A DNA stretch of 63,701 nucleotides from Heterodontus francisci (GCF_036365525.1 NC_090396.1:66689488-66753188), one strand, 5' to 3'. Counted from the first letter of the stretch, positions 16,701 through 51,251 are shown. Made by a program: numbers and translations. Notes: a model not told the origin generated them from the letters alone.

Positions 16701-19700
16701 TTCAGTGATTCCTCAAACCTCTCCATTATTTTTCTTCTGTTCTGTTCGGTCTCTATTTGCATGTGCGTATAGCGTATGCATGCTGTCGTGGGGCGTGGCA
16801 TGTATCCGTAAGCATTAACCAAATTAGAGTTTAAGTTTTAATAAATTTCACTTTTCTTCTTTAAACCTAAGAAAACCCATTTGTGCTCATTTCTTTGCCT
16901 TATAATTGGAAAGCGGTGAACAAGGATTCACCAAAGGGGAAGCTCAAAACACTGTTTAAAAACTAAATCCTGTTACAGTAAAACCAGGTGAAGGATGAAA
17001 GAGACCCCTAGGCACCTTTCTCACAATCTCATATGTTTCAATAAGATCAACTCTCGTTCTTCTAAACTCCAAGGAGTATAGGTCCAACCAGCTCAACCGT
17101 TCCTCATAAGATTTCCCCTTCATCCCAGGAATCAACCTAGAGAACCTTCTCTGAACTGCCTCCAATGCAAGTATAGCCCTCTTTAAGTAAGGAGGCCAAA
17201 ACTGTGCACCGTACTCTAGGTGTGGTCTCACCAATGCCCTGTACAGTTGTAGCAAGACTTCCCTACTTTTAAACTCCATCCCCCTTGCAATTAAGGCCAA
17301 CATTCCATTTGCCTTCCTAATCAGTTGCTGTACTTGCATGCTAACTTTGTGATCAGTGTACAAGGACTCCCAGTTCCCACTGTACCGCAGTATTCTGTAG
17401 TCTCTCCATTTAAATATTTTACTTTTCTATTCTTCCAACCAAAGTAGATAACATTGTCCCACATTATACTCCATCTGCCAAATTTTGTCCACTCAGTTAA
17501 CCTATTTACATCCCTTTGCAGACTGCATCCTCCTCACATAATATAAAAGCAAAATACTGCGGATGCTGGAAATCTGAAATAAAAACAAAGTGCTGGAAAT
17601 ACTCAGTAGGTCTGGCAGCATCTGTGTTAAGAGAAACAGAGTTAACATTTCAGGTCTGTGACCTTTCATCAGAACTGTGTCCTCCTCACAACTTGTGTTC
17701 CCTTATCTTTGCCTTGTCAGCAAATTTGGTTACAATACACTATCCCTTCACCCAAGTCATATCAGATTGTTAATAGTCGTGGCCCCAGCACCGATCCCTG
17801 TGGCACCCCAATGGTTACAGTTTGCCAACCTGAAAATGATCGATTTATCCTGATACTGGTTCCTGTTAGTCAATCCTCTACCCATACTTATATACTACCC
17901 TCAACACAATGAGCTCTTACCTTATGTAGTAACTTTTTACACAGCACCTTATCGAATGTCTTTGGGAAATTCAAATACACTACACCTACTGGCTCCCCTT
18001 TACCCACCCTGCTTGTTGCATCCTCAAAGAACTCTAATAAATTTGTCAAACACGATTTCCCTTTCATAAAACCATGTGGACTCTGCTTGACTGTATGATG
18101 ATTTTCTAAGTTACCTACTACTTCCTTAATGATGGATTCCAGCACTTTCTCATTGACAGATGTTTGGCTAACTGGCCTATAGTTTCCTGCTTTTGTCTCC
18201 CTCCTCTCGAATAGGGGTGTTACGTTTGCAATTTTCCATTCGCTGGGACCTTTCAAGACTCTAGGGAATATAAGAACACAAGAAATAGGAGTAGGCCATT
18301 CAGCCCCTCAAGCCTGCCCCGCCATTCAAGATGATCATGGCTGATCTGTCCCAGGCCTCAACTCCTCTTTCGGGCCTGCTCCACATAACCCTCGACTTCC
18401 CGAGATTTCAAAAATCTATTTACCTCCTCTTTAAATACATTTAGTGACCTAACCTCCACAACTCTGAGGTAGAGAATTCCAGAGATTCACCACCCTCAGA
18501 GAATAAATTCCTTCGCATCTCAGTTTTAAAAGTGTGACCCCTTATTCTGTAACTACGTCTCCAATTCAAGATCCTCCCACCAGTGGAAACATTCTCAACA
18601 TCTACCCTGTCAAGCCCTAAAATCTTATATGTTTCAATAAGATCACCTCTCATTCTTCTAAACTCCAATGAATAAAGGTCTAACCTGTTTAGCCGTTCTT
18701 GATAAGATAACTCCTTCATCCCAGGAATCAGCCTAGTGAACCTTTTCTGAACTGCCTCCAATGCTAGTATATCCTTCCTTAAATACAGGGACCAAAGCTG
18801 TACGCAGTACTCCAGGTGTGGCCTCACCAACACCCTGTACAGTTGTAACAAGACTTCCCTATTTTTAAACTCTAACCCCCTAGAAATAAAGGCCAAAATT
18901 CCATTTGCCTTCCTAATTACTTGCTGCACCTGCATGTTAACTTTTAATGCTTCATGTACAAGAACACCCGGATCCCTCTGTACTGTAGTATTTTGTAGTC
19001 TTTCTCCATCTAAATAATAATCTGCCTTTTTATTCTTCCTATCAACGTGGATGACCTCACACTTTCCCACATTGAACTCCAACTGCCAAGTTTTTGCCCA
19101 CTCACTTAACCTATCTATATCCCTTTGCAGATTCTTTGTGTCCTCATCATAACATGCCTTCCCACCTATTTTATATTGTCAGCAAATCTGGATACACTAC
19201 ACTCTGACCCTTCCTCCAAGTCATTAATATAGATAGTAAATAGTTGAGTTTCTCGGACCGATCCTTGTGGTACTCCACCAGTTACGGCTTTCCAACCTGA
19301 AAAAGACCCATTAATCCCGACTCTCTGCCTTCTGTGTGTTAGCCAATCCTCAATCCATGCCAACACGTTACCCCAATACCCTGAGCTCTTACTTTGTGCA
19401 ATAACCTTTTACGTGGCACCTTATTGAACACCTCCTGAAAATCTAATACACTACATCTACCAGTTCCCCTTTATCCACTCTGCTTGTTATATCCTCAAAG
19501 AACTCTAACAAATGTGTCAAACATGATTTCCCTTTCATAAAACCATGTTGACTGTTTGATTTCATTATGTTTTTCTAAATGTCCTGCTATTTCTCCCTTC
19601 ATAATGAACTCTAGCATTTTCCCAATGACTGATGTTAAACTAAATGGTCTATAATTTCCTGCTTTCTGTCTCCCTCCTTTCTCATATAGGGGTGTCACAT

Positions 19701-22700
19701 TAGCGGTTTTCCAATCCGCTGGTACTCTACCGGAATCCAGTGAGTTTTGGTATATTATGACCAATGCCTCCACTATCTCTGCAGCTACTTCTTTTAAAAC
19801 CCTTGGATTCAGGCCATCAGGTCCTGGCGACTTGTCTGCCTTTAGTCCCATCAGTTTGTCAAGCGCCTTTTCCCTTGTGATAGAGACTGTTACAAGTTCC
19901 TCCCTCCCATTTACAGCTTGCTCATCTATTATTGTTGGGATGTTTATGGTGTCCTTCACTGTGAAGACCTATGCAAAATATTGGTTTAAATTATCTGCCA
20001 TTTCCCTGTTATTAATTCCCCAGTCTCATCCTCTAAGGGTCCCACACTTACTTTAGCTACTCTCTTCCTTTTTGTATACCCGTAGAAGCTCTGTTTGTTT
20101 TTATATTTCTTGCCAATTTACTCTCAATCAATTTTCTCCCTCTTCATTAGTTTTTTAGTCACCCACTGCTGGTTTCTAAAAGATTCCCAATCCTCTGGCC
20201 TATCACTAGCTTTCGCTGCTTTGTACGCCTTTGTTTTTGATTTGATACTCTCCTTAACTTCCTTTGTTATCCACGAGTGGTTCATCGTTCTCATCAAGTC
20301 CTTCCTTCTGAGCGGAATAAATGTTTGCTGAGTGTTATGAAATAGCTGCTTAAAAGTGAATTTTGGAAGATTATAACCAATATAGCCACTTTCTCTGCAT
20401 CCACTTCTTTTAAGACCCTAGAATGCAAGCCATCAGGTCCAGGAAATTTGTCAGCCTTTAGTCCCATTAGTTTTCTCAGTTCTATTTCTCCAGCGATAGT
20501 GATTTTTTGAAGTTCCACCCTTCCTTTTGCCCCCGAATTTCTATTATTGGGATGCTTGAGTATCTTCTCCGTGAAGACAGATATGAAATATTTGTTCAAA
20601 GTCTCTGCCAATTCTTTGTTTCCCCGTTAGTAATTCCCCAGTCTTGTCCTCTAAGGGGCCAACGTTTACTTTAGTCTTCTTTTTATATATTTGTAGAAGC
20701 TCTTTATCTTTCTTGCTGATTTACTCTCATTCTAATTTCTCCCTATACTTTTTTTTTTTAAAAAAAGTCATCCTTTGCCAGTTTCTAAAATTTTCCCAAT
20801 CTTCGTGGAATTGTACGCCTTTTCTTCCAGACTGATACCTGTATGGAGTTTAAAATATTAATTTACATATCTAGCCCATCATTCTGAAGCTGTGCAGTTC
20901 CTCAAAATATTGTATGAAACAGTTTTGCACCAGTTAAAATTAGTGTGATTTAGTGAATAGCAATCTGAAATGAATTGCGTTCAAGTAAATGAGTAGTTCT
21001 TACCTGCCTCCACCACAGTAAACGCTGGCGTACCCAGTAGTCTAGCCATTGTCCTGAAGTTCGAGGAGAGCTAAACCATACTAGCGATGCCATATCCACC
21101 TCTCCTGTTCTTTAAAGTAATGGGAGATTAGAACTATCATACAGCAACTAGAGTAATTAATTTGTACTTTACATTACATTACAGCCCTTTCATTCAACTA
21201 GCTTTTTCTTCACACCTTGTCTTTCTCCCTTTCCCCTTCCCAAATTTTGCATGTAAAAAAAAAAGAGGCAGCCGGATATTTTTCTTTAAAAGACTGAATT
21301 CTGATGGCAGGGTAGTCAATTGAATTGGGTTATTAACCTTCACAGAGGATACTAAAACAGAAGCCACAGTGCACAATTCTGAGGACTGAAGGAAGTTGCA
21401 AGAGGATATTGATATGACAGTGACAGAATTCAATGTTTGTAACTGCAAGGTGGTACACATTTTGGTTAAAAAAGCACAATTATTGAATTGGGAAAGCTGG
21501 GTGTAGTAGAGGAGAGCAATTTGGTGTTCATAATATATTAAAGGCAAAAACTCAAGTGGGTATAAATAAACTAAAGTACTAGGTTTAGGGCAAGAAGTAC
21601 AGAATATAAAAGTTGGGATATAATGGTGAACCCATAGTAAACCTCAAAACCAAAGCTGTGTGTGCAGATTTGAGATCTAAACTATCGTAAGCACGTTGCA
21701 GCAATACAGGGTCGAATACAGATTCACCATAGTGAGACTTTGTTAAAAACTAAGATTTTGGTTTATGTTTGAGATTAAATAATGACATTTTGCAATTGAA
21801 CATGAATTTAATGTATGTCAAATAGAGTCTCTCACCTTACCGCAGTGCATGCAGTTGGGTGTTTATCAGCAAGAATGGGCTGATAACACACCCCGATCTC
21901 AGCCAAACCAAAAGGTAACTTCCTGTTCACAAGGCTCAAAGACCTAGTATATTCTTGAACAGCTCCTGTAGAAGATCATAAGAAACAGATGTGCATTTCA
22001 GACTTCAAAATTTTTTTAAATCTATGATAAGATTCTAGAGATAAAACCTCTTACTAATCATGGCTAGCTTTAACTTTGAATACCTGTCTTCAAGACAAGA
22101 AAGAAATTACATTACATTTTGTGCACAGATATCCCAATACACACCCATCAGTCTTCAATATCAACTGCTAACCACCCCCACAGGACAAACATGCATCCTA
22201 AAATCACCTTTCCCATTTATATGCCTTGTATCCAAGTTTTCACCCATTCGTCACTACCACATGGAGTAGTTGAAGTGAATAGCATTTAGATATATTCAAG
22301 GGTAAACTAGATAAGCACATGGGGAAGAAAAGAACAGAAGGATATGCCAATAGGATTAGATGAAGATGGGTGGTTAGAAACCTGTGTGGAGCATAAGCAA
22401 CGGCATGGGCCTTGGGGTGAATGGCCGCTTTCTGTGCTGTAAATACTATGCAATATATCCTATGTAATTTTATGTAGTTCACCCATGGGCACTTCTAGTA
22501 CAGCCAATGGAAAGCAACTGGTAGAGGGAGCCCTGCTCAAGTTTACCAGTCCTAAGCCAGAATACTATGACCAATTGTGGTACATCTATCATTACCTTGA
22601 CTGAGATAAACCAACTCAGCACACACTAGTGACTTAGTTTGGGACTTTCTTGGTCTGTAAAGCTCAGAAGGCAACTTTACCTCAGCGAGAGGCAAATTAA

Positions 22701-25700
22701 TTATGTTGCCCTCAGAAGTTCTCTCTCTTCCCCTCATACAAACAGTGTTGAAATCAAGACTCATCACATCTCTTACAGTCATTCTTTCCCTTCTCATAAA
22801 TGTCAGTCTTTCCCCCCCCTCCTACAACTTTCAGACTTTTAAAACCCGATCACCAACACATAATCTTGATTTCCTGATTTACCCAATTTTTCTATTCTAC
22901 TCTTTTCAACTTGAGTTTAAACTGTGAAAGTACATTCCTATATTTGTGTTAGAAATTGAGCTGGAAATCGAGCTATTTGTTTAAACCACAACTGAAGATC
23001 AAGATAAATAGCTCAGTACTGCCATCAGCTGGTGCTGTACTGGTATCTTTATGGTTTTATTATTTTCCACCCTTTACTGCAATTTCCTTGCCATTGTAAA
23101 CAATATCTGGAGCTTGCCATTGATGAAAGTGCATGGAAATTCTCACATCCTATTACTTTATAGTTCAGTGCACATAGTTGGGATGAAATTTAATAATTGG
23201 AAACCCTTTTATGGCACAGAACATTAACGCCAGCTTTTCACCTCTGGAACATAGATTCAAATTCAGCCTGTACGCATTAGTCAAAATCTTATTTCTTGCT
23301 GGACATTTTGGAGAGTTGAAGGTTAATAATCAAATTAAACTATAGTAGCCACAACTAGCCAGTGGACGAGCAGGTTGGATATGAAACAAGAGAGTACGAA
23401 TCAAGGGATACTATTCCACTCTCAGATGATTGCTTATCAACTGGAATGCAAGGGAGTGCAGGCTACAAACGAACATTGACCATGAATGATTAGTGTAGAA
23501 TAATGTTGCTCTGAAATATCTAGAGTTAGCAGTCTGACGGTATGCCTACATGTGTTATAATCTTTATACACTGGTGGCCTGCCACGAAGTGTCAATTTGC
23601 AAGGCTATATCAGGCAGTTGGAGACTGAGAAAGAAACCAAAATGGTACCTTTTGTATTATATAGACTGATCATCTTTACTACAAGTCTGTTCCATATACC
23701 CAACTGCCTCATGCTTACTCAGAGCACTTTGAAGAACCAGAAGGAAGAAGGTTGACTAATTTTTTTTCTGCTGCACAGGTTTGGGCATTCAATATGCTGA
23801 AACAGATTTCTGCAGTCAAACTTTCAGACATCTTCATAATGAAAATCATTTTAAAAACCACAACAAGTGGACTTCTTGATCTTTAACCTGGGGAGAGTTA
23901 TTTACAAATTAAATTTTATAAGGGATAGCTAGTTGCCTTGCATGCACAAACACATTTGTCAAATCAGGCTACTGAATCTTATTTTTTTGGGAATTGACAT
24001 CCATTGTTATTGGAATGGAGTGAAAAGAATCCAAACTCAGTGACAGATGTGCCCATCTAGGTCTCATGGATGAAAAGCATTAGCCAGAGTAGGCGAGATA
24101 TGCATCCCTTAGCTATTATAGTCAAATCTGCCACAGGGAGCTGACGTAATGACAATCTTTCTTCCCATGTCACTTTCTTCCCATCATTACCTCAAATTAC
24201 TACAACAAGACATAAAACCAGATAGATAACCTTCCTTGGGTACATTTCCAGGTACATCTCATCTTCACTCCAACTCCGATAACATTAGTTGATAAGCAAA
24301 AAGCACAAGCTTGAGTTCTCACTAAGCAAACAGCAGATACAAGAAGTTTGTAGTGAAAATGGCCTAAAAAGTCATGTCCTGTTTTAAACCCCACAGTTGA
24401 ATTCTGGGAACTAAAAGACTACTAAACCTACAATTCTGAGAAAATGAAACAACACTCTCAGCAATGAGACAAACAAAAAATGTCTTATATAAAAGCAAAA
24501 TACTGCAGATGCTGGAAATCTGAAATAAAAACAAGAAATGCTGGAAATACTCAGCAGGTCTGGCAGCATCTGTGGAGAGAGAAGCAGAATTAACGTTTCA
24601 GGTCAGTTCTGAAGAAGGGTCACTGTCAAATATTCGAAATATGAAAGGTTATAAGCAAGTAAAGCGGGGGTGGGGCAAAAAATGTCTTATAGTCAGTAGC
24701 TAATTGATAATGGCAAGTGAAAAACACAGGTCTGTCAAGGTCATTGGATAATTGGGCCATGGTGTCTGACCAGGGAATTATTAGAAGTGTCCCCAAGGAA
24801 GGCTATTTTTAATAAAAACAGAAAGTGCTGGAAATACTCAGCAGGTCTGGCAACATCTGTGGAGAGAGAAGCAGAGTTAACGTTTCAGGTTGGTGACTTT
24901 TCATCAGTACTGGGCTATTTTTATCTTGCTTACTATCTTCTTGTAGCAATTTGATACTGAGAAAAGAAAGGGCATTGAGCAGCTTAGCAGCAACCAGGCC
25001 TTTCATGAAATAATTAAAACATAATAAGCCAGATACATAAGCCCCAAGTGAGTAACACCGGCTCCACCAGAGCCACTTGGCTCCAGCCCTCATTAGAGCC
25101 AAACATGGACAAAGAGCTGAATTCCAGAGGGAAAGTGACTGTAACTGCCCTTGACATCGAGGCAGCATTTAACAGAGTGTAGCATCAGGCAGCCCTAGCA
25201 AAATTGAAGTCAATGGGAATCCTTGGGGTGGCGAACTCTCCACTGGTTGCAGCCAAACCTAGCACAAAGGAAGAGGTTTGTGTTTGTTGGAAGCTAATCA
25301 TCTCAGACCCAGGACTTCCTCAGGGTAGTGTCCTCAGCCCAACCATCTTCAGCTGCTTCATCAATGACCTTCCTTCCATCATAACATCAGAAGGAATATT
25401 TGCTGATGATTGCAATGTTTAGTACTATTTGCAACTCCTCAGATACTGAAGCAGTCTCTACCCGCATGCAGCAAGACCTAGACAACATTCAGGCTTAGGC
25501 TGATAAGTGGCAAGTAACATTCATGCCACACAAGCACCAGGCAATGACGATCTCCAACAAAAGAGAATTTAACCTTCTCCCTTTGACATTCAACAGCATT
25601 ACCAATGCTGAATCCCCCACCATGAACATCCTATAACCAGTAGAGAGACATGGTTAGAAGGTGACCAAGGTTGGGGACTGAATATTCAGGGGTACTTGAC

Positions 25701-28700: not shown

Positions 28701-30275
28701 CTCACCTCCTGACTCCCCAAAGCTGATATCCACCATCTACAAGGCACAAGTCAGGAGTGTGATGGAATATTCTCCACTTGCCTGGATGAGTGCTATTCCA
28801 ACAACACTCAAGGAGCTCGACGCCATCCATGACTAAGCACACCACTTGATCAGCATCCCTTCCATCACCTTAAACATTCACTCCCTTTACCAGTGACACA
28901 CAGTGGCCGCAGTGTGTGCCATTTACAAGATGCACTCCTTCAACAGCACCTTCCAAACCTGCGACCTCCGACACCTAGTGGAGCAAGAGCAGCAGACACA
29001 TGGGAACACCAACACCTGCAACTTCCCCTCCAAGCCACACACCATCCTGGACTTGGAACTATATTGCTGTTCCTTCACTATCACGGAGTCAAAAACCTGG
29101 AACACCCTTCCGAACAGCAGTGTGGGTGTATCTACACCACATGCGGGCAATTAGGGATGGGCAACATATGCTGACCTTGCCAGCTATGCTCACATCCTAT
29201 AAACAAAATAACTCCTGCTCCATCCAACAACAGAATAGATGGAACAGGTATCTTCCTTTGTGAAATCAAATGTATAAAAGATCGTGCTTTGAAAGTCAAA
29301 AATCAAAACAGAGAAATGTTTTAGAAGCATACAGAAAGGTTTTAGGTTTTGAAGAGATGCAAGTTTTAGTAAATCTAAGATAAAAGCCAGGGATTCAATC
29401 TCAATTCTAACTCATTTTTCATCTTTGCAGCTTGAGGCATCATCACCCTACATAAATGCAAAGTCAGTACTGCTGAGTACATGTACTACATCACTGCCAC
29501 AGTGCTGTAACATCTTCTAGAATTAGTAACACTACCTGTGTGCTGGACCAGGGCTCACAGTTCAGGAGACAACTAAGGCAGAGGGGATGTAGGTGATTTA
29601 GAACAAACAAAAGTATAAACTGAAAGAAAATTCAATCAGTTACATTATTTTATTCTAGTCAAAAGGTTCTGCAACTCATTAGGGAATATTCTAGGAAGGA
29701 CTACAGGAAATAGAGTGAAAAAAGAATAGTTCAGAAAACAATTGTGATGCCATTGTACCTTGCAAGAGATTAGGACGTAGTGTTGTACTCTCCTTCAAGT
29801 CTTTTAGTAAAGCAGCAATTTCTTCCTTAGTCAAATCCTTGTTGCCTAATGGCATTTGCAATGCCGCAGTGTCCATCAGCCTCACTGACCTGTTGTCTGA
29901 ATTCTGACAGCTTACCAACTTATGAGGAGTCTCCACTCCAAATATCTGCTCTCTAGTTAATACCATTGAATCCCACCACTTACTGGCCAAGTTCTTCTTG
30001 AGTTCCATTCCCAAATGTCCATAATTGTACCAACCATTGATGAGAGAGTCTTGGGTAATTACATCTCCAGTTATAAAATGCCTACTCTGGCAAAGCTCAA
30101 TCAGCGTTTCAGTGAATCCTGAAAGGTCAGAGGTGGATTTATTGTATTTTCTTGACACCAGACAAAAGCCAAAGATATGCCAATCTTGTTGAAACACTAT
30201 ATTGGAGATCTTCCATTGCTTCAGGAATGACTGAACAGGAAATTTCATAATCAATCCCATGATGGTGAGTTTCAT
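4640..30275 (-). CDS. POLG2: DNA polymerase gamma accessory subunit POLG2, 3'-partial; exons complement(29759..30275,21836..21965,21004..21109,14930..15103,12013..12153,6755..6835,4640..4740); final exon not found in window
   Basis: All exons have GT-AG boundaries and consistent phases. The spliced peptide contains recognisable POLG2 motifs: [51 protein letters not shown] and VWPGYLET. Lies downstream of DDX5 on the same strand, as in mammals. Confidence 0.95.
6755..6835 (-). CDS. POLG2: POLG2 coding exon 6 (81 nt) [27 protein letters not shown]
   Basis: tttag| acceptor, |gtgtgt donor. Confidence 0.95.
7480..7990 (+). mobile_element. CR1 (HER1-like) LINE 3' fragment
   Basis: ORF 7491-7844 [15 protein letters not shown]...[13 protein letters not shown]; tail gggccgaagggcctgtttctgtgctgta. 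Confidence 0.9.
8301..8650 (-). mobile_element. HE1 / V-SINE
   Basis: tRNA-like head (TGGCGCAGTGG ... GGTTCAATTC), V-domain gtgtggagtttgca.gttctccc.gtgtctgcgtgggttt, CR1-type tail with (tctaaa)n. Confidence 0.88.
8860..10893 (+). mobile_element. Nested cluster: old CR1 (8860-9180 + 10648-10893) containing SINE B (-; 9181-9357 + 10465-10647), itself containing a young CR1
   Basis: The split halves of each host element resume collinearly across the inserts. Confidence 0.8.
9358..10464 (+). mobile_element. Young 5'-truncated CR1 LINE with open RT C-terminal frame
   Basis: ORF 9419-10228 contains [18 protein letters not shown] and RPHLEYC; ends in a (tgttctt)n tail. Confidence 0.93.
10891..11220. 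mobile_element. Possible non-autonomous DNA transposon (Harbinger/MITE-like) end
   Basis: Abrupt CpG-rich block starting GGGCTGAATTTT. No matching second terminal repeat seen. Confidence 0.35.
12013..12153 (-). CDS. POLG2: POLG2 coding exon 5 (141 nt) [47 protein letters not shown]
   Basis: aaaag| acceptor, |gtatgt donor. Confidence 0.95.
12200..12757 (-). mobile_element. CR1 LINE 3' fragment (resumes at about 13994-14060)
   Basis: ORF 12448-12756 [17 protein letters not shown]; tail ctcgaggggccgagtggcctactcctgctcc. Confidence 0.88.
12760..13993 (+). mobile_element. Young 5'-truncated CR1 LINE with long open RT frame
   Basis: ORF 12800-13738 ([25 protein letters not shown]); (tgttctt)n tail; inserted into an opposite-strand CR1. 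Confidence 0.95.
14160..14570 (-). mobile_element. Old Deu-domain SINE (SacSINE1/AmnSINE1-like)
   Basis: Reverse complement resembles the clearer copy at 63215-63455 (gatcc...ggcattattggaa...agttctt...tggtgttc; ttgcagtgcacaaattg). Confidence 0.6.
14930..15103 (-). CDS. POLG2: POLG2 coding exon 4 (174 nt) FAKSPSSF...[18 protein letters not shown]...SNLK
   Basis: ttgtag| acceptor, |gtatgc donor. Confidence 0.95.
15216..15793. mobile_element. Possible MITE / non-autonomous DNA transposon
   Basis: Imperfect terminal inverted repeats GGGACAGAAATTGG (15216) and CCAATTTCTTCC (15782-15793); no coding capacity. Confidence 0.4.
16290..17025 (+). mobile_element. Probable LTR fragment
   Basis: Non-coding block with AATAAA near 16840 followed by a motif shared with 149-689. 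Confidence 0.35.
17539..17679 (-). mobile_element. Short Penelope-derived element with hammerhead-like core; 11-bp TSD TCCTCCTCACA
   Basis: Matches the terminus of the 31995-34332 element. TSD copies at 17528-17538 and 17680-17690. Confidence 0.85.
17640..17677 (-). ncRNA. Minimal type-I hammerhead ribozyme motif
   Basis: Minus strand reads CAGTT CTGATGA A AGGTC ACA GACCT GAAA TGT T AACT: conserved core, stem II, stem I AGTT/AACT. Confidence 0.65.
21004..21109 (-). CDS. POLG2: POLG2 coding exon 3 (106 nt) [35 protein letters not shown]
   Basis: taaag| acceptor, |gtaaga donor. Confidence 0.95.
21836..21965 (-). CDS. POLG2: POLG2 coding exon 2 (130 nt) [43 protein letters not shown]
   Basis: ctacag| acceptor; the AAG|gtgaga donor is the one that keeps the frame. 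Confidence 0.93.
24490..24675 (-). mobile_element. Short Penelope-derived element; 16-bp TSD CAAAAAATGTCTTATA; internal micro-inversion
   Basis: Collinear with 31995-32185. TSD copies at 24474-24489 and 24676-24691. Confidence 0.85.
24812..24912 (-). mobile_element. Short Penelope-derived element with hammerhead-like core; 11-bp TSD GGCTATTTTTA
   Basis: Minus strand CAGTA CTGATGA AAAGTCACCAACCT GAAA CGT T AACT. TSD copies at 24801-24811 and 24913-24923. Confidence 0.82.
25060..29200 (+). mobile_element. Mosaic of decayed LINE-B (25060-25630, 28655-29200) and CR1 fragments (25633-28630, with a minus-strand piece at about 26060-26410)
   Basis: [29 protein letters not shown] and [12 protein letters not shown] remnants. 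Confidence 0.8.
26675..27027 (-). mobile_element. HE1 / V-SINE, full length
   Basis: GGGCGGCACAGTGGCGCAGTGGTTAGCA head, V-domain, CR1-type tail with (tctaa)n. Confidence 0.9.
29759..30275 (-). CDS. POLG2: POLG2 first coding exon (start ATG 30275, or downstream ATGs at 30260/30248)
   Basis: ORF 29691-30275 contains [32 protein letters not shown] and LRPNLLQG. Phase-1 donor G|gtacaa; upstream acceptor ctacag| at 30376. Confidence 0.9.
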
Positions 30276-32095
30276 TTATAAGGATTCATAAAGGAAGAAC
30301 GATCCGAGTGATTTGTCATATTGGAATTCTTGGCACCAATCATGCTGGCAAGAGTAGTCTTAAAGTTACAAAACATCTGTAGCAAAATAAACAGAATTTG
30401 TAAATAAAAGTACATTTTATTCACAGTAATAAACACATTTTCCCCCCTTTTCCAAACTCTATAAAAACAGAACTATAGGTTCTCATTAATCACTGCCATG
30501 ATAATCAGAAGGTTATTCAGCTTAGTTCAGGATAAGAACACAACTACAAATTAAATATTTAATAGACCCTCTAAAGAGTTCAGTGATTATATATATTTTA
30601 CAGTACAGTACTACGCTACAGGTTTATTTGTACTCTGCGATGAATTAGAATTAATCTCAGCTAACAGCAGCTACGGCTATAATTTATCATGGCAGCCCTG
30701 CGGTAGGGAGTGGAGAGGGGTGGGGATGGGGGGATGGGGGGAGGGGGGACATCATCCAGGGTTCCCACTCCTAATTACAATCCAATGAATCATGTTGGAA
30801 ATCATCTATTTGGATATCAGGTGAGGAAGAAAATCAGTCTTTGCTGTGATTCCACTAGATATATCTAGGCTCACACATAAAACAAGCAAACCCTCACTAA
30901 GGTGAGGTATACAATGGCTGTCTTCCCAGTCCCATAGCCCCTTCCACACCCACTTTCCTCTGCAGCAGAAAACATTGCAATCTAACTGCTCTCAACAGGC
31001 AAAGGAAGAACAAACTCTCAGAATCATTACAGTGCAGGAGACGACATTCAGCCTACTGTGTCTTCACCAGCTCTTCGCGACACCACCACCTTCTCCCCAT
31101 AACCCTGCACATTCTTCCTTTTCAGATAACAGTCTAATTCCCTTTTGAATGCTTCAATTGAACTTGCCTCCATCACACTCTCAGGCTGAGCATTTCAGAC
31201 TTTAACCACTCACTGCGTGAAAGTGTTTTTTCTTGAATCGCTTTTGCTTCTTTTACCAATTACTTTAAGTCAGTGCCCCCCCTCGTTCACAATCCTTTCA
31301 GGAGTGGAAACAATTTCTCCCTATTTACTCTGTCCGAACCCCTCATGATTTTAAATACCTCTATCAAATCTCCTCCCAGCCTTCCTTTCTCCAAGCAAAA
31401 GAGTCCCAACTTCGCCAATCTACCTTCATAACTGAAGCACCTCATCCCCAGAACCACTCCTGAATCTTTTCTGCATTCTTTCCAATGCATTCACAATCTT
31501 TCCTAAGTGTAGTGCCCAGAATTGGATGCAATACTCCAGCTGAGGCCGAACTAGTGTCTCATACAAGTTCAACATAACCTTCTTGCTCTTGTACTCTATA
31601 CCCTTATTAATAAAGCCCAGGATACTGTACATTTTATTAACCACTCTCTCAACCTGTCTTGTAACCTTCAATGACTTATGCACATATATACCCAGGTCCC
31701 TCTGCTCCTGCACCCCCTTCAGAACTGTGCCCTTTATTTTATATTGTCTCTCCATGTTCTGCCCCCTGTCCGCCCATTCCACCAACTTGTCTATGTCCTT
31801 TTGAAGTTCTACACTATCCTGCTCACAGTTCACAATGCTTCCAAGATCCGTATCATCTGCAAACTTTGAAATTGTGCCTTGTACACCAAGTTCTAGGTCA
31901 TTAATATATCACAAAAAGCAAGGGTCCCAACACTGACCCGAGGAACTCCACAACAAACCTTCCTCCAGCCCAAAAATAAATCAATTAACCATTAAAATAA
32001 AAGCAAAATACTGCGGATGCTGGAAATCTGAAACAAAAACAAGAAATGCTGGAATCACTCAGCAGGTCTGGCAGCATCTGTGGAAAGAGAAGCAG

Positions 32096-32133
32096 AGTTA
32101 ACGTTTCGGGTCAGTGACCCTTCTTCGGAACTG
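32096..32133 (-). ncRNA. Minimal hammerhead-like motif in PLE terminus (core variant CCGAAGA)
   Basis: Reverse complement of 34231-34268. Confidence 0.55.
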
Positions 32134-34230
32134 ACAAATATTAGAAAAGTCACAGATTATAAGCAAGTGAGGTGGGGCTGGGGCAAGAGATAACAAAGGA
32201 GAAGGTGCAGATTGGACCAGGCCACATAGCTGACCAAAAGGTCACGGAGCAAAGGCAAACAATATGTTAATGGTGTGTTGAAAGACAAAGCATTAGTACA
32301 GATTAGGTGTGAATACACTGAATATTGAACAGCAAGTGTAAACCTGAAAAAAAACCTGAAAAAAACAGTAGGTAAGCAAACTGAACAAACTAAGATGAAA
32401 TGAAATAAATGCAAAAAAAGATAGTAAAAAATGTAAAAAAGAATGTTAAAAAAAAAAAGAAAAAATAACTAAAAATGAAAGTAAAATGGGGGGCTGTCAT
32501 GCTCTGAAATTATTGAACTCAGTGTTCAGTCCGGCAGGCTGTAGTGTGCCTAATCGGTAGATGAGATGCTGTTCCTCGAACTTGCGTTGATGTTCACTGG
32601 AACACTGCAGCAATCCCAGGACAGAGATGTGAGCATGAGAGCAGGGGGGAGTGTTGAAATGGCAAGCAACCGGAAGCTCAGGGTCCTGCTTGCGGACTGA
32701 GCGGAGATGTTCCGCAAAGCGGTCACCCAGTCTGCGCTTGGTCTCCCCAATGTAGAGGAGACCACACTGTGAGCAGCGAATACAGTATACTACATTGAAA
32801 GAAGTACAAGTAAATCGCTGCTTCACCTGAAAGGAGTGTTTGGGGCCTGGGATAGTGAGGAGAGAGGAGGTAAATGGGCAGGTATTACACCTCCTGCGAT
32901 TGCAGGGGAAGGTGCCCTGGGACGGGGACGAGGTGGTGGGGGTAATGGAGGAGAGGATCAGGGTGTCACGGAGGGAACGATCCCTTCAGAATGCTGACAG
33001 GGGAAGGGAGGGGAAGATGCGACTGGTAGTGGCATCACGCTGGAGGTGGCGAAAATGGCAGAGGATGATCCTTTTGGATATGGAGGCTGGTGGGATGAAA
33101 AGTGAGGACAAGGGGAACCCTGTCACGGTTCTGGGAGGGAGGGGAAGGGGTGAGGGTAGAGGTGCGGGGAATGGGTCGGACACGGTTGAGGGCCCTGTCA
33201 ACCACAGTGGGGGGAAATCCTCGGTTGAGGAAAAAGGACAGGGTTCCCCTTGTCCTCACTTTTCATCCCACCAGCCTCCATATCCAAAGGATCATCCTCC
33301 GCCATTTTCTCAACCTCCAGCGTGATGCCACTACTAAACGCATCTTCCCCTCCCTTCCCGTCAGCATTCCGAAGGGATCGTTCCCTCCGTGACACCCTGG
33401 TCCACTCCTCCATTACCCCCACCACCTCGTCCCCGTCCCAGGGCACCTTCCCCTGCAATCGCAGGAGGTGTAATACCTGCCCATTTACCTCCTCTCTCCT
33501 CACTATCCCAGGCCCCAAACACTCCTTTCAGGTAAAGCAGCGATTTACTTGTACTTCTTTCAATGTAGTATACTGTATTCGCTGCTCACAGTGTGGTCTC
33601 CTCTACATTGGGGAGTCCAAGCGCAGACTGGGTGACCGCTTTGCGGAACATCTCCGCTCAGTCCGCAAGCAGGACCCTGAGCTTCCGGTTGCTTGCCATT
33701 TCAACACTCCCCCCTGCTCTCATGCTCACATCTCTGTCCTGGGATTGCTGCAGTGTTCCAGTGAACATCAACGCAAGCTCGAGGAACAGCATCTCATCTA
33801 CCGATTAGGCACACTACAGCCTGCCGGACTGAACACTGAGTTCAATAATTTCAGAGCATGACAGCCCCCCATTTTACTTTCATTTTTAGTTATTTTTTCT
33901 TCCTTTTTTTTTTAACATTCTTTTTTACATTTTTTACTATCTTTTTTTGCATTTATTTCATTTCATCTTAGTTTGTTCAGTTTGCTTACCCACTGTTTTT
34001 TTCAGGTTTTTTTTCAGGTTTGCACTAGCTGCTGTTCAATATTCAGTGTATTCACACCTAATCTGTACTAATGCTTTGTCTTTCAACACACCATTAACAT
34101 ATTGTTTGCCTTTGCTCCGTGACCTTTTGGTCAGCTATGTGGCCTGGTCCAATCTGCACCTTCTCCTTTGTTATCTCTTGCCCCAGCCCCACCTCACTTG
34201 CTTATAATCTGTGACTTTTCTAATATTTGT

Positions 34231-34268
34231 CAGTTCCGAAGAAGGGTCACTGACCCGAAACGTTAACT
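34231..34268 (+). ncRNA. Minimal hammerhead-like motif in PLE terminus (core variant CCGAAGA)
   Basis: CAGTT CCGAAGA A GGGTC ACT GACCC GAAA CGT T AACT; palindromic ACGT in place of helix III. Confidence 0.55.
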
Positions 34269-35010
34269 CTGCTTCTCTTTCCACAGATGCTGCCAGACCT
34301 GCTGAGTGATTCCAGCATTTCTTGTTTTTGTTTCAATTAACCATTACTCTTTGTTTCCTGCCACTCAGTCAATTCCGTATCCATGTTACTACTGTCCTGT
34401 TTATTCCGTGAGCTATAACTTTGCCCATCGGTCTGCTGTGCGGCACTGCATCAAATGCCTTTTGGAACAGCACATCAACTGTATTGCCCTCATCAACCCC
34501 TTTACCTCATCAAATAAACTCCAGCAAGTTAGTTAAACATGATTTTCCCTCAAGAAATCCATGCTGGCTTTCTTTAATTAACTCACATATGTTCATGTGA
34601 CTATTAATTTTTGCCCCAAATTATTCTTTCTCGAAGCTTCGCCACCACCATAGTTAAACTGACCAGCCTGTAGTTGCTGGGGGTAATTTTAAACCAACCA
34701 CAATAGGTGGGGGCGTTAAACTGTCAGATTTGCAAAACGCTTTAACTACAACGAGTTTCGGGGAAGCCAACTGACCTGCCTTGCAGAGGCGGGTCTGTAA
34801 TTATAATATTCAAATAAAGCTCCGTTCCTGAAATGTTTGCAGCAATTCGAAGTTAATGCCTCCTGGATGTGTTTCCCAGGGGGTCAGGAGCAGCAAGAGG
34901 TGTTTCTTTAAAGAGCACAGCTTGTGGGCCAGGAGAAGCAAGAATGCTTTCCCCAACTCTAAAGCAAATCTCTGCCAACTCAATGCCCACAACGTTTCAA
35001 GTGTCCTTAC

Positions 35011-39152: not shown

Positions 39153-39265
39153 CCTGACTGGAAACATCAACTTTGCTTCTCTCCACAGATGTTGCCAGAC
39201 CTGAATATTTTCCAGCACTTTGCTTTTATTTCAGATTTCCAGCATCTGCAGTATTTTGCTTTTAA
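39153..39265 (+). mobile_element. Degenerate short Penelope-derived element
   Basis: ctctccacagatgttgccagacctg...tttcagatttccagcatctgcagtattttgctttta matches the PLE terminus; hammerhead core decayed. Confidence 0.75.
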
Positions 39266-40615
39266 TTGTTCGAGTGAACCTGGGCAGAGACTTCTGGTTG
39301 GCCATTGGGCCTTGCCATCCTCACTGGAGGTCAGCATTTAGTCCCCATCAGGGATTACTTGATGGTTGAGCAGCAACCCTGGTTGATTTTCTAGTCCCTG
39401 CTCCAGGAGCAAATGGACTGCATTGTTAAGGCTGCTTTGGATGTGACGAGTTCATTTGAGAATTGGAATTAGTGATATTTCTGGTAAACAAAGGTAAATT
39501 GGTTAGCCTGCAGTATCCCAACATTAAGACCAGTTTTAGAATCAATCATAACTGCCATCTACAACAACCTGTATTAAGTAATTTCTTTAGGATGTGATTT
39601 CAAATTTAGCTCAGACCATATGTGACTTACAGTTCAACAGAGAAAGATTTTGGACAGTCTTGATTCAATTCCCAGGCAAGAGTTCACATCACAATTTCTG
39701 CACTAATTGACTCTAAAGTGGCTGTTTTACTGAGATCACTAAATAATTGACCATGTCACAATGGTACATGGAGGTTCTGCAATTGAAACTATTTCACTAT
39801 GTCCAAACACACTTTATTTTGGGTTTAGAATAAATGGAGTTTTACTCTGCATCTAAACATACTCTATCAGACAAGATTTTAAAATGGTCCCCTTCGGCAA
39901 CTGTTTCACCCTACCAATTTTAAGGTAGTTTCGAATGATCGAGTGACAAGCCAAATTCTCTTTCCATTACCAGATCCATAACAGCAGCAAATTCAGCCAA
40001 GTTTTCTTCTAGATGCTTATTTGCTTTGCAGGGTAGGTTTGGAGTGCCAATACCTCACAGCAGGTGTACTGCTATTCAGCAGGAGGGAAATAAAGTCAAA
40101 GCTGAAGATGACCATGTGGTTCATCCATCCAGCAACTTAAACATCCAATCATCTGTGGGGAAAGACTTCGATGCTCGTCTTAAATTTGCCTTACACAATT
40201 TTGAGCCTGTGTCCCACAGCTGTGGTTTAATTGTTCTGAAATCACATTTCCTATGTTGTCATATACCTCTTTCCAGTCTTTTATAAGCAAAAAAACTGCA
40301 CTTTACTTAGCATGGATCAGTTTCATGTTTCTTCCCTGACCTGCCTTAGAGACAGTAACCACAAGTGTGCAGTCTGACTAGAGCATTTTACAGTTTAAGG
40401 GTGGAAGAATGACTTCAATATGTGTCAGTGTACCCTTAAACAGCTTTATGATGCATGCACATATACACACATTTGAGTCTTGTTCAACATTTTAGTCTAA
40501 ACATGAATAAATTAAAAAGGTACCAGCTATTTGTTCAGGAGATACAATTAGTCCAAATGTGTAAACTTGTGTATTATCAATCAAGTACAAGCCAAGGAAT
40601 CCACTTTTTTTAAAT

Positions 40616-40970: not shown

Positions 40971-51251
<10,281 letters not shown>

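Follow-up and report, generated by a model that had tools for sequence, protein, structure and literature searches.

Many terminal copies of a Penelope-like element in Heterodontus francisci begin in a cluster at the front of a minimal hammerhead motif

A stretch of 63,701 nucleotides from Heterodontus francisci (GCF_036365525.1 NC_090396.1:66689488-66753188), which we call the window, carries exons of the POLG2 gene, a Penelope-like element (PLE) at 31995-34332 and, around them, short insertions that match the terminus of that element and hold intact or decayed minimal hammerhead ribozyme motifs. A first-pass annotation made from the sequence had proposed that the short units are a non-autonomous, ribozyme-bounded family of their own, mobilized by the Penelope enzyme. 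The locus raises the question of what sets the ends of these units. They are the terminal 100-135 bases of the PLE, and we think it fairly probable that they arose by run-off, when the capped parent RNA was copied through its uncut 5′ leader.

Short terminal copies and their 5′ ends

We numbered positions from the right arm of the parent element: position 0 is 34234 (+), the first T after CAG and two bases before core C3, so that stem I runs from -2, C3 falls at +2 and the cut predicted after GUU separates +30 from +31. Three short insertions on the minus strand, 17539-17679, 24490-24675 and 24812-24912, were said at first pass to carry separate target-site duplications (TSDs) of 11-16 bp, and indeed each is bounded by an exact one, of 11 bp (17528-17538/17680-17690), 16 bp and 11 bp, respectively; when 600 flank pairs were deliberately mismatched, 7 gave a TSD of at least 8 bp by chance. 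A degenerate fourth copy at 39154-39267 (+), which lies beyond the coding span of POLG2 and is antisense to the gene, runs from about +16 to +135 and has neither a TSD nor the first core box, CUGANGA. The proposed derivation from a Penelope terminus was borne out, as all four are 82.5-88.3% identical to the terminus of 31995-34332 and the insertions have Penelope-type marks. Two units begin at stem I, as had been noticed: the 17539 unit, of the older CUGAUGA subfamily, extends from -5 to about +136 and starts 3 nt before the stem, and the 24812 unit extends from -3 to about +98, belongs to the shorter of two 3′ end classes and starts 1 nt before it. The 24490 unit is a 5′-truncated copy starting near -52, about 50 nt upstream of the core, and lacks an intact motif, its hammerhead core being inverted in place (about 24602-24625).

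A minimal-hammerhead descriptor, which requires stem pairing by design, found three intact motifs in the window, one in the 17539 unit and one in each parent arm: 34232-34268 (+) in the right arm, with the CCGAAGA core variant and an ACGU palindrome, and 32096-32132 (-) in the left arm. Both parent arms satisfy the core boxes, helices I and II and the palindromic loop 3; the copies at 24490, 24812 and 39153 fail, and in 24812 substitutions break one stem I pair and two of the five stem II pairs. The match at 17640-17676 (-) is a predicted minimal type I hammerhead that would cut at 17644/17643 after GUU, with a 4-bp stem I, CUGAUGA, a bulged A, a 5-bp stem II, GAAA and a decayed loop 3; the imposed fold has -5.9 kcal/mol, compared with -6.6 kcal/mol for the minimum free energy structure. 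Since this loop 3 is UG, the ACGU palindrome has decayed to AUGU. The intact core quoted at first pass therefore describes the 17539 unit except in loop 3, and does not describe the 24812, 24490 or 39153 copies. In 1.38 Mb the descriptor gave 20 matches, as against 0, 0 and 1 in shuffled sequence. The outer stem II pair, for which the descriptor demands pairing, is A-U in 6 of the 20, G-U in 5 and G-C in 9, and stem I is identical in 19; the stem II covariation noticed at first pass amounts to one outer pair along the history of the subfamilies. None of the 7 matches at E<=5 in an Rfam scan of the window was a hammerhead, and motifs this small probably fall outside the Rfam models.

We mapped 5′ ends in two samples, excluding loci L051-L080 from the end counts and from the G counts given below because the first bases of the query biased them. 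In an unbiased sample, 99 copies reach the 3′ region; of these, 18 run on beyond -105, 11 start in -99 to -28, 36 in -12 to +7, and 34 further downstream, many of these last being old. TSDs of at least 8 bp flank 17 of the 81 shorter copies (two of the 17 look like artefacts), and 11 of the 17 start in -5 to +5. The second sample comprised 53 young arms, successive matches along the initial 7 Mb of C1 with an anchor at +21, which makes ends further downstream invisible. Here, 23 arms start within the 12-nt interval -5 to +6 at the front of stem I, 10 more start in -28 to +16 and 20 are long; the placement of 23 of the 33 non-long arms in -5 to +6 has a binomial p of 8e-20, and none of the 53 starts between -154 and -29. 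Randomly distributed 5′ ends, which the first-pass annotation had named as grounds for rejecting its proposal, were thus not found, as the ends cluster; the cluster lies at the front edge of the motif and not at the cut. We came across no report of such a 5′ end cluster at a PLE hammerhead in the literature searched, which took in few subscription journals and excluded Repbase. Apparent clusters near -225 and -356 proved to be artefacts of extension stalling in T runs, and a cluster at -97 to -91 in selected long loci had no counterpart among the 53 young arms.

The position of the cluster bears directly on the notion that self-cleavage or a circular RNA, as in the retrozyme route, sets the unit ends. 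A minimal hammerhead with a palindromic loop 3 is conserved, and head-to-head pairs place two motifs close together in DNA, on opposite strands. This route predicts 5′ ends at +31, where none of the 17 TSD-bounded unbiased copies starts (the nearest are at about +19 and +39); the observed ends are found some 32 nt upstream of where the cut is predicted, and the units are monomeric and keep the motif whole. Ribozyme-made ends, as proposed at first pass, are therefore largely refuted, and we regard this route as extremely improbable.

A possible trace of the cap, two proposed priming sites and the competing accounts

The base at the boundary itself is informative. Across the genome, stem I is preceded by C in 24,667 copies, by G in 3,269 and by A or T in 3,746; at a control position, a C lying eleven bases upstream, 20,161 copies have C, 46 have G and 1,893 have A/T. 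G therefore precedes stem I in 10% of young copies, compared with 0.2% at the control position, and makes up 46.6% of the non-C bases there against 28.4% expected; from these counts, about a fifth of the copies break at exactly this base. At the control position, the A/T class was T in 96 of the first 100 copies, probably a variant in a T run. Among copies ending at -1 or -2, with five mutated long copies left out, the next base is G in 8 of 14. An untemplated 5′ G has been ascribed to cap copying in L1 and SVA in the available text of PMC3287187, and by analogy the G excess before stem I fits copying of the RNA cap.

The 3′ ends also fall at preferred places, in two classes at about +97 and about +135, and 32 of 33 TSD-bounded inverted pairs, a set mixing unbiased and query-selected loci, have one arm of each class. 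The two classes match the two internal start sites described for Poseidon, the PLE of the anole Anolis carolinensis (Frangieh et al. 2024, PMC11167929, as far as its text was available). Partner arms are mostly closer to one another than to random copies (in the window pair, 1 polymorphic difference versus a median of 10) and so probably derive from one source locus. Unrelated RNAs as the source of the two arms were rejected as a rule, L278 and L207 being exceptions.

In L194, L196, L207 and L022, the terminal sequence abuts the leader of the open reading frame (ORF), so the short unit stands at the 3′ terminus of the element and also serves as its 5′ leader. The cluster at the front of stem I likely marks where the RNA of the element begins. 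Transcription would start at or beside the A of CAGTT, which resembles an initiator. The enzyme would then prime at either of two internal leader sites, as its anole counterpart does in vitro, copy back through the uncut hammerhead and fall off at the cap, so that stubs would be made anew by each subfamily wave, with ends that do not come from ribozyme cleavage. For the anole element, the text of PMC11167929 available to us describes uncut RNA as the main substrate, ribozyme mutants that still inserted, and no reads ending at the cut. In Drosophila virilis, the pseudo-long terminal repeat (pLTR) of Penelope carries an internal promoter, according to the accessible part of PMC2377424.

Several points weigh against run-off at the cap. 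The same part of PMC2377424 puts the D. virilis start site some 120 nt ahead of the hammerhead, and in that element helix I is where an intron ends (PMC4209133, in part). The ends here spread over about 12 nt, several carrying 2-3 templated bases upstream of the A (to -5), and none of the four complete-leader copies sits at the cluster, all four having more upstream sequence. In 3 of 8 inspected G-preceded copies, the G falls inside the TSD or at its end, so that part of the G excess could come from target bias or microhomology. The RNA data, whose status as RNA is mostly a guess, are assembled contigs that show no RNA 5′ end, strand or cleavage, and the tree of short and long copies considered below has only 104 columns and low power.

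The spread of the ends would suit a rather unlikely alternative, in which the cluster reflects a stop or hand-over on a longer RNA, caused by a hammerhead-bound protein or by new DNA snapping back on a short hairpin. Fold-back junctions through a 6-bp hairpin (-5 to 0 with +15 to +20) occur in L275, L290 and the 24490 unit of the window, others run through the tiny CAG-TT-CTG hairpin, and the anole ribozyme requires the protein of its element (PMC11167929, text seen in part). Nevertheless, the terminal region shows no extra folding stability over shuffles (z -0.9 to +0.6), an older subfamily without the 6-bp hairpin has the same cluster, and a stop of this kind does not predict the G excess. 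Two further kinds of junction recur: in L274, L286 and L296, sequence of +20 to +24 precedes a start at -2, as if the enzyme, on reaching the end of the RNA, had jumped back to the hammerhead core, and the independent insertions L292 and L294 share an identical inverted junction (-17 arm, TA, -4 arm).

A boundary read as a 3′ splice site (CTAAY, pyrimidines, CAG), with stubs arising from spliced or splicing-intermediate RNA, would accord with the D. virilis intron ending at helix I and with retention of the motif in old and young subfamilies. We consider it very unlikely, given that TSD-bounded copies have no common upstream exon and several retain intron-side bases; moreover, no GT-AG joint to this site occurs among the 15 joints listed of 36, a weak test drawn from contigs only.

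Another question is whether the stubs are a lineage of their own. Across a tree holding 34 short copies and 29 long ones, the short/long label changed 21 times, compared with 20.9 in shuffles, and 310 of 500 shuffles were as low. The A-U, G-U and G-C outer stem II pairs and both core variants occur in short copies as well as in long ones, and in the young set no downstream position distinguishes the two classes. Because the two classes intermix on the tree and share every core variant, we see no separate lineage, nor, on this low-powered tree, the private diagnostic changes of a family resembling short interspersed elements; the independent family of the first-pass annotation is not upheld. 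The stubs track the subfamilies of the parent and are not a new mobile family. That some or all of them nonetheless propagate themselves, perhaps holding an internal promoter and both priming sites and being recopied, would be in keeping with copies that number in the hundreds of thousands and have separate TSDs, with the D. virilis promoter mentioned above and with a CCGAUGA core in 6 of 33 short versus 1 of 20 long young arms (p 0.23). We find this quite unlikely, as the short copies do not cluster on the tree, long copies share all core and downstream variants, the 3′ ends are mixed, and the copies inspected include no tandem arrays.

If run-off at the cap is accepted, the stubs may, by analogy, be the strong-stop DNA of Penelope, left by failed jumps to the 3′ repeat, with the hammerhead, placed in the very first stretch of the RNA, serving as a landmark or pairing site and not as a cutter; we give this more specific proposal only a small chance. 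Normally, the enzyme would jump to the identical repeat located at the RNA 3′ end and copy the rest.

The parent element and its relatives

The parent is a young insertion with a 14-bp TSD, made of two head-to-head, 5′-truncated arms: 31995-33238 (-), ending at about +136, and 33237-34332 (+), ending at about +100. A C-terminal frame at 33229-33861 (+), with a mirror copy at 32497-32985 (-), encodes a CX4CxxC linker and a GIY-YIG endonuclease, whose Pfam match (E 2e-4, 22 bits) is slightly below the 22.6 cut-off. Full-length units of the family are about 3.3 kb, and L191 and L194 hold a 794-residue reverse transcriptase (RT) frame with a weak RVT_1 match (E 1.7e-4, below cut-off); RT and GIY-YIG share a single frame in some copies and occupy two in others. 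As in endonuclease-bearing (EN+) PLEs, the RT is followed by the GIY-YIG endonuclease, and a pLTR (in L194), a partial tandem (in L196), the 33 inverted pairs and a 30-40 bp optional tail (the two 3′ ends) are all present. The parent thus appears to be an EN+ PLE of the Neptune type, a placement made by the linker motif (clade motif CX2-5CxxC) and not by an RT tree. Fourteen 100-kb blocks (1.379 Mb without N) contain 122 terminal copies, which extrapolates to ~530,000 in the 6.0-Gb genome, and a 36-base word of the young subfamily occurs 41,671 times genome-wide.

Three side observations concern this family. At the RT/endonuclease junction, a C-rich run is two bases shorter in 34 of 67 young copies scored, putting the endonuclease out of the RT frame while long RT frames are otherwise intact; this may reflect a defective subfamily that is spreading, slippage that recurs, or frameshifting of the programmed kind. 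The terminus (34214-34335 in the window) together with the ORF leader of L194 has five motifs resembling 3′ splice sites (pyrimidines and AG), the last just before the ATG of the ORF, and sense copies in introns could perturb splicing through them. In a single case, L191, a near full-length copy starts exactly at the end of the leader tail (+137; 5844 in the oriented locus).

The closest relatives are published PLEs, described here from the parts of the reports that were available. With the Neptune-type EN+ PLEs (Craig et al. 2021, PMC8557442), the element shares RT plus C-terminal GIY-YIG, the cysteine linker, 5′ truncation, partial tandems, an adjacent inverted copy, the optional tail and a pLTR hammerhead, but truncation is variable in those elements and sharply clustered at the hammerhead edge here; tails and inverted copies of PLEs are also on record in PMC3846280. 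Poseidon likewise primes internally at two neighbouring sites that lie downstream of the hammerhead, extends both strands, uses uncut RNA and has no ends at the cut, whereas its ORF starts inside the hammerhead (the first ATG of the long ORF here is about 170 nt downstream) and the text of PMC11167929 that was available reports no 5′ end cluster. Metazoan PLE hammerheads (Cervera and De la Pena 2014, PMC4209133) share with the motif here a short helix I, a bulge ahead of stem II, G10.1-C11.1 and palindromic 15.2/16.2, occur mostly as dispersed single motifs, ascribed there to truncated PLEs, and showed low activity in that study; stem II is shorter here (5 bp), and the available text of that study does not treat where copies end. 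Non-LTR retrozymes (Li, Clavereau, Pollet, bioRxiv 10.64898/2026.07.22.740005; PMC7761336) are also non-coding, pLTR-related, hammerhead-bearing and PLE-dependent, but they come as tandem units and are thought to move by way of a circular RNA that is cleaved (also PMC6765202). The units here are instead dispersed monomers or head-to-head pairs that do not start at the cut site; the copies inspected included no head-to-tail units, a finding made without a dedicated genome-wide tandem search.

The POLG2 locus and what the end map means

POLG2 lies on the minus strand, with its first coding exon region at 29691-30275 (PDB match, E 1e-22) and internal exons, identified by sequence match, at 21841-21965 and 4640-4740; the last coding exon is probably outside the window, some 6 kb to its left. 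These exons flank the 17539, 24490 and 24812 units, which are therefore intronic and in sense, and the parent and the 39153 copy are upstream of the first coding exon. Sense orientation of three out of three intronic units is compatible with chance. The first-pass annotation was right that the ribozyme strand is the POLG2 sense strand; its several half-ribozymes in the pre-mRNA reduce to one foldable core at most, because the descriptor finds only 17539 intact among the intronic units. We see nothing to suggest that a set of ribozymes acts on POLG2, and nothing indicates any effect on the gene. Elsewhere in the window, 42387-42449 (-) resembles mir-3064 (E 1.3e-8, 50.5 bits, under the gathering score of 76), and beside it the frame 40971-41489 (-), with no Pfam match, resembles the C-terminus of DDX5, which would fit the vertebrate POLG2-DDX5 neighbourhood. 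About 52% of the window matches repeats of the sampled blocks, much of it RT fragments like those of long interspersed elements.

The class of element and its ribozyme were already known; the end pattern is real and testable. Young copies, tens of thousands in number, preserve the points at which the copying of a vertebrate Penelope element begins and ends, and this end map points to uncut RNA as the template and names one candidate transcription start. If the stubs are strong-stop DNA, repeated jumps would rebuild the pLTR and account for the partial tandems. Through the end map, both the role of the minimal hammerhead and the rebuilding of pLTRs become testable.

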